NCBI RefSeq assembly: GCF_048403405.1
Contig: NZ_CP183129.1
DNA length: 64,000 bases
Source: Escherichia coli
GTDB taxonomy: Bacteria > Pseudomonadota > Gammaproteobacteria > Enterobacterales > Enterobacteriaceae
Strand: one strand, 5' to 3'
The notes beneath the pieces were generated by a model. The model was not told the DNA's origin. It did not search any database and saw only the letters and a list, made by a program, of their open reading frames with translations. How positions within the stretch are numbered: position 1 is the first letter of the stretch; every line of letters begins with the position of its first letter. Position numbers and translations under genes: made by a program. Positions 34,064 through 36,123 of this stretch are shown piece after piece.

Positions 34064-34645
34064 ATGAATTTTTTAGCTCACCTGCATCTAGCTCACCTGG
34101 CGGAAAGCTCGCTTTCCGGCAATTTGCTGGCTGATTTCGTACGCGGAAATCCTGAAGAAAGTTTTCCGCCCGACGTCGTGGCTGGCATTCATATGCATCG
34201 GCGCATTGATGTACTAACCGACAATCTGCCGGAAGTCCGCGAAGCACGGGAATGGTTTCGTAGTGAAACGCGCCGCGTTGCGCCTATTACCCTGGATGTC
34301 ATGTGGGATCACTTTCTTTCCCGCCACTGGTCGCAGCTGTCGCCGGACTTTCCGCTACAGGAATTTGTCTGTTATGCCCGCGAGCAAGTGATGACGATTT
34401 TGCCGGACTCACCGCCACGTTTTATCAATCTGAACAATTACTTGTGGTCAGAGCAGTGGCTGGTGCGCTATCGAGATATGGATTTCATCCAGAACGTGTT
34501 AAACGGCATGGCAAGCCGTCGCCCACGTCTGGATGCCCTGCGTGACTCCTGGTACGATTTAGACGCCCATTACGATGCCCTGGAAACCCGCTTCTGGCAG
34601 TTTTATCCGCGGATGATGGCACAGGCGTCACACAAGGCGCTCTGA
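34064..34645 (+). CDS. acpH: Acyl carrier protein phosphodiesterase AcpH (193 aa)
   Basis: ORF 34064..34645; [32 protein letters not shown]... Confidence 0.93.
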
Positions 34646-34665
34646 AACTTCAAGCTCCGGCGTCA

Positions 34666-36123
34666 CTATTTTTTAGCATTCGCATCCAGCGGGGCGGCAT
34701 AACAGCTGTAAGAAAAACATTCGCTGGAATGATTGGCGATATCTTTAAAGTTGCTTTCAGCAACCCCCTCGAACATGAGTACCGTTCTGGACAACTCTCC
34801 GTTTTCATTTATATATGGAAAATCAAATTGTGTACTGAATCGCCATACATCTGTCTTTTCTGGCTCGCTGTTCACAGAGATACGTCGATGGAAGACTCCT
34901 CCTGAAAACGTGCGCCAGAACAATTGTTGATCAAAATCTTGTAATATCGCACACTTGGATGCTATTTGACGTAGTAAACCTGCATACCGTGGACTGCCAT
35001 TACGAGCAACATTATACAAACCCTGACTAAAAGCATCAAACAAACAATAGATATGATCACTAGTGAAAAAAGGTCTTAATTTTTTTTGTTCTTCATCGCT
35101 GTAATCCAGGAGCATCTCATTGATTTCTTCCGGTGAGAATTTTAAGACAAAATTATCCTCAGGATTTGTTTCTTTCTTGTTTTTTTCACTATTCTTCTCC
35201 TCAATGGTCTTCGCATTTTGTTTCGCAATTTTTTTCGCATTTTCTTCCTCAGTTTTTTTCGCAATTTTTTCCGCAATTTTTTCCCGAGTTTTTGGTTTTA
35301 GACTAACACCATCGATGTCAACCGGTGTTGTTTTCAGATCTCTCTGCGCGTCTTTCAAATTTGTCTTATAGAGATCGGGCACTTTATCGGCAGATAAGTA
35401 TCCGGATGAAGAAATCTGGTGTGTACGCATGGGGGGCTGTTCACAAAGCATCGAGGCTATATCGTCTTTAAACTCTTTTACATTAAAGTTATCGGCATTA
35501 ACCTTCCCTGTTATAAACCCCGCATCGGCAATTTTCTTCTCTAATTGTTTTGTACGTTTAGAATAATAAGCGTTGTTATCATAAAACTTTTCAAGAAGGG
35601 CCCACTCCTCAAGTTGCCTTATGTGATTTTTCAACTGTTGATGATCTATTTTATATTCATGTGTACTAGAATCATTTTGGTTGCAGGGGTTACAGATTTT
35701 TAAGCATAATTTTCCATCATAATTATTATCTATGGTATCAGTGAAAATATAGGACACTTCAATACTCTGCCCGTTCTTATCAGTCATCTCATATGACCAT
35801 TGCCCCGTTCGTTTCGCATTCTTAATGAGTTCGATGGACTCTGCAGGACAACCATGAAGAATGGGCAGAATTTTATCAGGATGCTTAATGAGTAAAATTA
35901 TTATATTTACAATGTTTGAAAAGAAATCTTTGCTATTTTTTATTTCATCGATTTTTTCCGCTGAAATGTTTACTAAGTTTTCATTTCCGGAAATGAAAAG
36001 CAATTTGCCATGGGGGCTTTTTTTAAATTGTTCTTCTGTTTTAGAAAAGACATCCTCTTTAAAAGGTGGCAACTCACTACCAGTAATAAACGGTTTCAAT
36101 AAATTCGAATTTGAAATTGTCAT
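34666..36123 (-). CDS. Hypothetical protein (485 aa), AT-rich orphan gene inserted between acpH and malZ; function unknown
   Basis: ATG at 36123 behind GGAG; no signal peptide; N-terminus MTISNSNLLKPFITGSELPPF (Ser/Asn/Thr/Ile-rich, no acidic residues in the first 15 aa); central Lys/Glu/Ala-rich repetitive segment (KIAEKIAKKTEEENAKKIAKQNAKTIEEKNSEKNKKE); visibly AT-rich; acpH and malZ are adjacent in K-12 as I recall. Confidence 0.75.
   Translation of the reverse strand: MTISNSNLLKPFITGSELPPFKEDVFSKTEEQFKKSPHGKLLFISGNENLVNISAEKIDEIKNSKDFFSNIVNIIILLIKHPDKILPILHGCPAESIELIKNAKRTGQWSYEMTDKNGQSIEVSYIFTDTIDNNYDGKLCLKICNPCNQNDSSTHEYKIDHQQLKNHIRQLEEWALLEKFYDNNAYYSKRTKQLEKKIADAGFITGKVNADNFNVKEFKDDIASMLCEQPPMRTHQISSSGYLSADKVPDLYKTNLKDAQRDLKTTPVDIDGVSLKPKTREKIAEKIAKKTEEENAKKIAKQNAKTIEEKNSEKNKKETNPEDNFVLKFSPEEINEMLLDYSDEEQKKLRPFFTSDHIYCLFDAFSQGLYNVARNGSPRYAGLLRQIASKCAILQDFDQQLFWRTFSGGVFHRRISVNSEPEKTDVWRFSTQFDFPYINENGELSRTVLMFEGVAESNFKDIANHSSECFSYSCYAAPLDANAKK

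Follow-up and report, generated by a model that had tools for sequence, protein, structure and literature searches.

Convergent gene pairs with overlapping transcripts have been catalogued in Escherichia coli MG1655 with ExcludonFinder, and the malZ-acpH pair is one of 165 convergent pairs that overlap in at least 50% of the 58 transcriptomes used (PMC12288877). The list also contains yaiZ-ddlA and yaiW-yaiY, both of which are present in the DNA analyzed here, and the intergenic distance was significantly shorter in the excludon pairs than in pairs that do not overlap (PMC12288877). The locus described herein involves the same acpH 3' end, again with a very short convergent gap and no intergenic terminator, but the two differ in the convergent partner, which is malZ at a distance of 4 bp in K-12 and a strain-specific orphan gene at a distance of 20 bp here, and in that the overlap is known from RNA-seq in K-12 and is predicted here.

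The segment that carries the orphan gene also resembles the ORFan islets that are found at core-gene junctions of E. coli, such as the O-islands of O157:H7. Like them, it has a low GC content, is present or absent at a fixed site, lacks mobility genes and is annotated as hypothetical in strain Sakai, and it is presumably equivalent to one of the numbered O157:H7 O-islands. It differs from such islets in that its synonymous divergence is below that of its flanks, and in a dN/dS ratio near or above 1.

The window analyzed is a stretch of 64,000 nucleotides of E. coli DNA with the gene order bolA ... cyo ... thiI ... tsx-yajD-secFD-yajC-tgt-queA-acpH-[orphan]-malZ-proY ... phoA ... sbmA, where acpH encodes ACP phosphodiesterase and malZ encodes maltodextrin glucosidase. 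Strains such as MS 69-1 and TUM14771 share the sequence of positions 33000-38000 at 100% identity. From the comparisons that follow, we consider it probable that the boundary between acpH and the orphan gene is an ordinary tight convergent gene boundary, created when a young, AT-rich segment entered a site that was tighter still. The features of the region are given in Table 1.

Table 1. Features of the acpH-malZ region, in positions of the window.
Feature	Position	Strand	Description
acpH	34064..34645	+	Stop TGA 34643-34645; from the ORF list and the RefSeq annotation of identical DNA in strain MS 69-1
Weak, non-canonical terminator-like element for acpH	34626..34675	+	Hairpin 34626-34666, dG -13 kcal/mol, then UAUUUUUU
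Carrier-only end of acpH	34640..34645	+	Last Leu codon and stop, CTC TGA; earliest possible left breakpoint
Strain-variable inserted segment	34646..36308 (left end 34640 or 34646)		1663 bp, 37.5% GC; replaces the 4-bp spacer; from empty-site alignments
Orphan gene	34666..36123	-	485 aa, 36.7% GC, ATG start, stop TAG (cta at 34666-34668); hypothetical protein WP_000155927.1; ECs_0454 in O157:H7 Sakai
12-bp (4-codon) tandem repeat	35180..35293	-	Encodes the Lys/Glu/Ile/Ala-rich middle of the orphan protein
GGAG ribosome-binding site	36131..36134	-	7 nt before the orphan ATG; read from the sequence
Strong imperfect hairpin	36230..36275	-	dG ~-28 kcal/mol; 33 nt past the malZ stop, within the inserted segment
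malZ	36309..38126	-	Stop TAA 36309-36311; convergent partner of acpH where the insertion is absent

The acpH/orphan junction among the convergent gene pairs of the window

The stop codons of acpH and of the orphan gene are separated by 20 bp (34646-34665), reading AACTTCAAGCTCCGGCGTCA. The original prediction of a spacing of about 20 bp was therefore right, both from the exact coordinates and from the RefSeq annotation of six carrier strains, in all of which the two genes have the identical 20-bp gap. The sequence of the gap is unchanged in the six carriers apart from a single G/A difference at 34654, and its first three bases (AAC) are also found in the 4-bp spacer of K-12, AACG.

Ten convergent junctions were measured in the window, using the annotation of MS 69-1 placed on it by exact sequence match. 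The stop-to-stop gaps are 16 bp for proC/adrA, 20 bp for acpH/orphan, 23 bp for ddlA/yaiZ, 37 bp for tsx/yajD, 53 bp for yajL/thiI, 57 bp for yaiY/yaiW, 77 bp for rdgC/hyp, 127 bp for yajR/yajQ, 139 bp for araJ/mak and 176 bp for pentapeptide/pgpA. As the gap is no longer than 23 bp at three of the ten, a distance of 20 bp at acpH/orphan is not unusual, and a short stop-to-stop distance is normal in E. coli gene packing. The contrast with other junctions of the window that had been drawn for this boundary is real for yajR/yajQ, yajL/thiI and tsx/yajD but is lost over all ten, where gaps of 16 and 23 bp also exist. The related argument, that the gap leaves no room for separate terminators or a REP element, is sound to the extent that no canonical terminator or REP fits into it. 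A short gap is not, however, the same as the absence of a terminator, and the conclusion does not follow from the spacing, because hairpins are embedded in the opposing coding sequence at the equally tight junctions proC/adrA and ddlA/yaiZ, and a weak hairpin spans the gap at acpH/orphan itself.

Terminator-like structures at tight junctions

These structures were found with a custom scan for a hairpin followed by a U-tract, which was run on acpH/orphan, tsx/yajD, proC/adrA, ddlA/yaiZ, the K-12 malZ/acpH junction and the hairpin next to malZ (36230-36275). The positive control, tsx/yajD, gave a compact hairpin of 9-11 bp (dG ~-16 to -20 kcal/mol) with a T-run after it on the + strand only, and no candidates on the yajD strand. 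At proC/adrA and ddlA/yaiZ the terminator-like hairpins, with dG values of -28 and -16 kcal/mol, respectively, lie inside the opposing coding sequence. Both junctions are similar to acpH/orphan in having gaps of 16-23 bp and a hairpin with its U-run over the 3' end of the opposing coding sequence, but their hairpins are strong and compact, while the candidate at acpH/orphan is weak, is found on one strand only and has G-U pairs in its closing stem. This + strand hairpin is closed by a 6-bp GGCGUC/GGCGUC stem with two G-U pairs and has a large interior, and its U-run overlaps the stop codon and the last two Lys codons of the orphan gene. No terminator-like hairpin was detected by the same scan on the - strand downstream of the orphan gene. 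A consensus terminator scan of 34600-34700 was empty, and the fold at the junction is not significantly stable on either strand (z = -1.75 on the + strand and +0.31 on the - strand). The junction thus has no bidirectional intrinsic terminator, only the wobble-paired hairpin on the + strand, and it is not a REP or BIME element, as the gap is just 20 bp and the whole segment occurs once per genome.

In K-12, the hairpin and U-tract scan found nothing terminator-like after malZ into acpH, and the lone site for acpH is weak (dG -10) and lies 74 nt beyond its stop, inside malZ.

Origin of the segment between acpH and malZ

In the empty site, as represented by DH5a/K-12, the stop codons of acpH and malZ are 4 bp apart (...GCG TTA TAA AACG TTA GTT...). 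The segment is present in 1126 of the 5424 complete E. coli genomes that have the locus (~21%), as a single copy in each, and the remainder have the 4-bp junction. In every carrier examined it sits at the acpH-malZ site, and the carriers span O157:H7, the D-type strain of this window, Shigella dysenteriae and environmental isolates. When one genome was compared per species, the two stops were separated by exactly 4 bp, and the orphan gene was missing, in the representative genomes of E. coli, E. albertii, Escherichia sp. MOD1-EC7003 and Escherichia sp. E1V33. The orphan gene was found in none of 100,044 species-representative genomes (GTDB) in a search with exact peptide words, which a highly divergent copy could escape. 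Because the 4-bp junction is shared by these four Escherichia representatives, all of which lack the orphan gene, and because the GC content of the segment is low (37.5% versus 53-55% for acpH and malZ), the 1.66-kb segment is better read as a derived insertion within a subset of E. coli than as DNA that other strains have lost by deletion.

The site was probably altered before that. In Salmonella arizonae and Enterobacter a gene for a 200-residue AhpC-like peroxiredoxin is located between acpH and malZ, and for this reason the 4-bp junction of Escherichia resembles a scar that an earlier deletion left behind, and the site has seen more than one turnover. Such earlier alteration of the locus, the scattering of carriers over divergent lineages and the identical junctions in all of them would also fit the opposite polarity, in which the segment is ancestral to E. 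coli, the K-12-type junction arose by precise deletion and nothing was placed against acpH. This is highly improbable, however, since a 4-bp junction in four Escherichia species representatives, E. albertii included, would require repeated, identical and precise deletions. Against it also are the GC content of 37% compared to 54% in the flanking genes, and the synonymous divergence of the orphan gene, which in five of the six carrier alleles (0.02-0.04) is far below that of queA, acpH and malZ (0.055-0.24), as expected of a younger insert spread over older haplotypes. This lower divergence suggests that the segment is younger than the haplotypes that flank it and that recombination has carried it from one to another.

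With the segment read as an insertion, its arrival widened the convergent junction of acpH from 4 to 20 bp, replaced malZ by the orphan gene as the convergent partner and moved malZ 1.66 kb away, to a position behind a strong hairpin. The original prediction was that an insertion had set the orphan gene directly against the 3' end of acpH. An AT-rich segment was indeed inserted, with its left end at or inside the last two codons of acpH, but the tightness of the junction is not a consequence of this, as the site was tighter still (4 bp) before the insertion, and the spacing is therefore uninformative as to how the insertion happened. Nor can a native acpH terminator have been retained at the junction, another outcome that had been considered, as the empty site of 4 bp means that an intergenic one never existed.

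Breakpoints and content of the segment

Alignment with the K-12 acpH-malZ sequence defines the right breakpoint exactly, at the malZ stop (36309), where homology to the empty site restarts at TTAGTTCATCC, while the left breakpoint is bracketed between 34640 and the position after 34648. On the left side, homology extends through ...AAGGCG and is followed by CTC TGA AAC T in carriers and by TTA/TTG TAA and the 4-bp spacer at empty sites. In a comparison of six carriers with five empty sites, the SNPs at 34640, 34642 and 34644 follow the presence of the insert without exception, while neighboring SNPs are unlinked to it. The breakpoint may be 34640, in which case the last Leu codon and the stop of acpH came with the incoming DNA, or it may follow AAC (34648) and be accompanied by three silent changes in acpH. 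A third possibility is homologous recombination from a relative in which acpH ends in CTC TGA, and this ending occurs in several Citrobacter and Enterobacter. On the malZ side, the carriers have in common a short haplotype (36360 T, 36375 G, 36386 G), beyond which they diverge, and this is consistent with a single origin of the segment.

The segment consists of one orphan gene, its ribosome-binding site and upstream region, and one strong hairpin. It contains no transposase, terminal repeats or target-site duplication, and no direct repeat spans the two junctions. The orphan gene is its sole long ORF and has no family match, and no match to phage or true plasmid DNA was found, so that nothing identifies it as a mobile element. 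Two matches recorded as plasmids are 4.9-Mb chromosomes that were filed as such. A direct repeat near the left end, GCaCaGGCGTCAC / GCtCcGGCGTCAC (34619-34631 and 34654-34666), might have been a microhomology or target-site signature, but was rejected as such because it does not flank the insert and similar chance repeats are plentiful in the region; the only role that seems plausible for it is to form the wobble-paired stem of the weak hairpin on the + strand. It was also considered that the 185-bp spacer from the orphan start to the malZ stop might be a decayed duplicate of the acpH 3' end, to which MAFFT aligned it with ~55% identity in K-12, but the local alignment score of 8 is no different from the mean of 8.1 obtained with 500 dinucleotide shuffles, and an acpH remnant was ruled out.

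The strong hairpin in this spacer was recovered both as an inverted repeat and by the hairpin and U-tract scan. Its fold has a z-score of -4.2 on the - strand and of -6.1 on the + strand, and it is followed on the - strand by AAUUUGUU. Its stems are kept in the O157 and A16 alleles, where an indel is accommodated in the loop, and it has no match in Rfam. The hairpin is likely to be the terminator of malZ and, at the same time, an insulator that would shield the promoter and upstream region of the orphan gene from read-through.

The orphan gene

No significant match to the orphan protein was found in Pfam, NCBIfam, PADLOC, PHROGs or a PDB sequence search, and a HMMER search of 1.84 billion representative proteins gave nothing but its own cluster and fragments thereof. 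All of its homologues are ~89% identical or more, and wherever a source is given for the close ones that are listed, it is E. coli, Shigella dysenteriae or unnamed Escherichia. A single-sequence AlphaFold model was unusable (pLDDT 37), and no literature was found on ECs_0454 or its protein accessions. The alleles range from 461 to 493 residues, and protein alignment and allele lengths attribute much of this range to the copy number of the tandem repeat (Table 1). The A16 allele has, in addition, a highly divergent central block. The dN/dS ratio of the orphan gene is 0.2-1.7, compared to ~0.02-0.04 for acpH in those pairs with enough changes for an estimate. To judge from its detectable homologues, this is a fast-evolving gene that is restricted to Escherichia and Shigella.

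The orphan gene appears to be a real coding sequence, because its frame is open in six divergent alleles, in spite of up to ~96 nonsynonymous changes and with every indel in-frame, and because the chance of a 485-codon open frame in DNA of 37% GC is ~1e-15, as estimated from base composition. If the ORF were instead non-functional or unexpressed, as silenced or decaying foreign DNA, the spacing of the stops would have no transcriptional meaning. The lack of any homologue outside its own cluster and of any match in the databases above, the low pLDDT and the dN/dS ratio would all fit with this, as would the IS1 insertions that interrupt the gene in some strains and the typical silencing of AT-rich DNA by H-NS. 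We nevertheless regard it as unlikely, given the improbably long frame, its conservation with only in-frame length differences in the six alleles, a GGAG motif 7 nt ahead of the ATG and the retention of the segment in ~21% of complete genomes.

Transcription across the junction

The acpH gene on the + strand and the orphan gene on the - strand, with their stops 20 bp apart, have the convergent orientation and the short distance that characterize excludon pairs. Because malZ and acpH transcripts overlap in K-12 (PMC12288877), 3' overlap at the end of acpH is the native state. It is likely that the 3' transcripts of acpH and the orphan gene also overlap, since the + strand hairpin is weak and nothing comparable follows the orphan gene. 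Transcripts of acpH would either stop inefficiently at the weak hairpin and its U-run or read through, antisense, into the 3' end of the orphan gene. Those of the orphan gene, which has no intrinsic terminator, would continue antisense into acpH until they are ended by Rho-dependent or collision-dependent termination; Rho acts on untranslated antisense RNA. The resulting acpH and orphan mRNAs would have overlapping 3' ends, as reported for malZ-acpH of K-12. The effect of such overlap on expression would depend on the level at which the AT-rich orphan gene is transcribed, and this may be low because of silencing by H-NS, which is the usual fate of AT-rich acquired DNA. Convergent transcriptional overlap at the junction is thus plausible, and the interference between the two genes that was originally thought likely is a possibility only.

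A more elaborate proposal would be that selection has shaped the junction into a regulatory device, a true excludon with mutually exclusive expression of the orphan gene and acpH, for which the 20-bp spacing has been kept. The near-invariant gap among carriers and the missing intrinsic terminator after the orphan gene would be in accord with this, as would the designation of malZ-acpH as an excludon in K-12 (PMC12288877). It is nonetheless very unlikely, because the conservation of the gap is no more than is expected of a young segment (orphan dS of 0.02-0.04), the orphan protein has no apparent connection in function with an ACP phosphodiesterase, and tight convergent junctions are common in this window.

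A further reading is that the orphan gene is under diversifying selection, for example as an undescribed defense, immunity or host-interaction factor, and is a nearly flank-free cassette that has been moved between E. coli lineages into the scar left by loss of the peroxiredoxin gene that other Enterobacteriaceae have, where transcript overlap would couple its expression to acyl carrier protein turnover. We put this forward as a speculative and quite improbable combination, and the reading of the junction as an ordinary tight convergent boundary is the one that we retain.

Significance

The junction itself matters little. The analysis has a modest value in its definition of the insertion, and in what it indicates of the turnover of this site, which is occupied by a peroxiredoxin gene in Salmonella and Enterobacter, is empty in Escherichia and, in ~21% of complete E. 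coli genomes, contains an ORFan. This gene (ECs_0454 in O157:H7), which is intact, evolves rapidly and has less synonymous divergence than its flanks, is a candidate for studies of lineage-restricted genes.

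Sequence variation in the orphan gene and its surroundings

Among the carrier strains compared, the orphan gene, the 485-aa ORF on the minus strand (34666-36123) in the strain-variable insert between acpH and malZ, has a synonymous divergence of 0.02-0.04, which is 2- to 12-fold below that of the flanking genes queA, acpH, and malZ (0.055-0.24); its dN/dS is 0.2-1.7. The allele of carrier strain A16 is strongly divergent in a central block (residues about 280-400). Allele lengths range from 461 to 493 aa, and much of this range is due to a tandem repeat within the gene, the copy number of which differs between strains (Table). 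In a number of strains closely related to that of the window (E21, WCHEC96200, WCHEC000837, and WCHEC4533), the orphan gene is split by an IS1 insertion and is annotated as two hypothetical proteins.

When the window was compared with O157:H7 Sakai (32950-38050), divergence was about 3-4% over queA-acpH-orphan-malZ and only about 0-1% in tgt/yajC on one flank and proY on the other, such that the variable site lies inside a roughly 5-kb block of raised diversity.

The hairpin shortly downstream of malZ keeps its stems between alleles, with a 2-nt indel in the loop, and has no match in Rfam. Two terminator-like hairpins at other junctions in the window, proC/adrA and ddlA/yaiZ, overlap the coding sequence of the opposing gene at its 3′ end.

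Features of the window and of the acpH-malZ loci of two other Enterobacteriaceae (L016 and L030, own coordinates)
Feature	Coordinates	Description
12-bp (4-codon) tandem repeat	35180-35293	inside orphan gene; encodes KIA-x-type repeats
Strong hairpin, single-copy	36230-36275	shortly downstream of malZ, within inserted segment; dG about -28 kcal/mol
Terminator-like hairpin	55699-55750	proC/adrA junction (16 bp); strong, dG -28
Terminator-like hairpin	60705-60740	ddlA/yaiZ junction (23 bp); strong, dG -16
AhpC-like peroxiredoxin gene, 200 aa	L016 3292-3894	Salmonella enterica subsp. arizonae; between acpH and malZ
AhpC-like peroxiredoxin gene, 200 aa	L030 3210-3812	Enterobacter asburiae; between acpH and malZ

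By the annotation of E. coli MS 69-1, yajI (DUF3251) is split by an element of the IS200/IS605 family that encodes TnpB/InsQ (about 24520-26810). A 715-bp IS200C copy that lies between yajD and secF in MS 69-1 is absent from the window (about 28200-28900). Between yajO and pgpA lies the gene for a 523-aa pentapeptide-repeat protein (18522-20093). It is part of the annotation of the MS 69-1 genome, which matches the window, and probably also varies between strains.

The acpH-malZ site outside Escherichia

In other Enterobacteriaceae, the AhpC-like peroxiredoxin gene at this site has the same direction as acpH, and a conserved motif, ATTGATAGGTAAAAGCTGG.GAACGATTG, which is common to many genera, closely follows the acpH stop codon. 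Escherichia has neither the peroxiredoxin gene nor the motif at acpH-malZ and, because both are missing there, the 4-bp Escherichia junction between acpH and malZ looks like a deletion scar.
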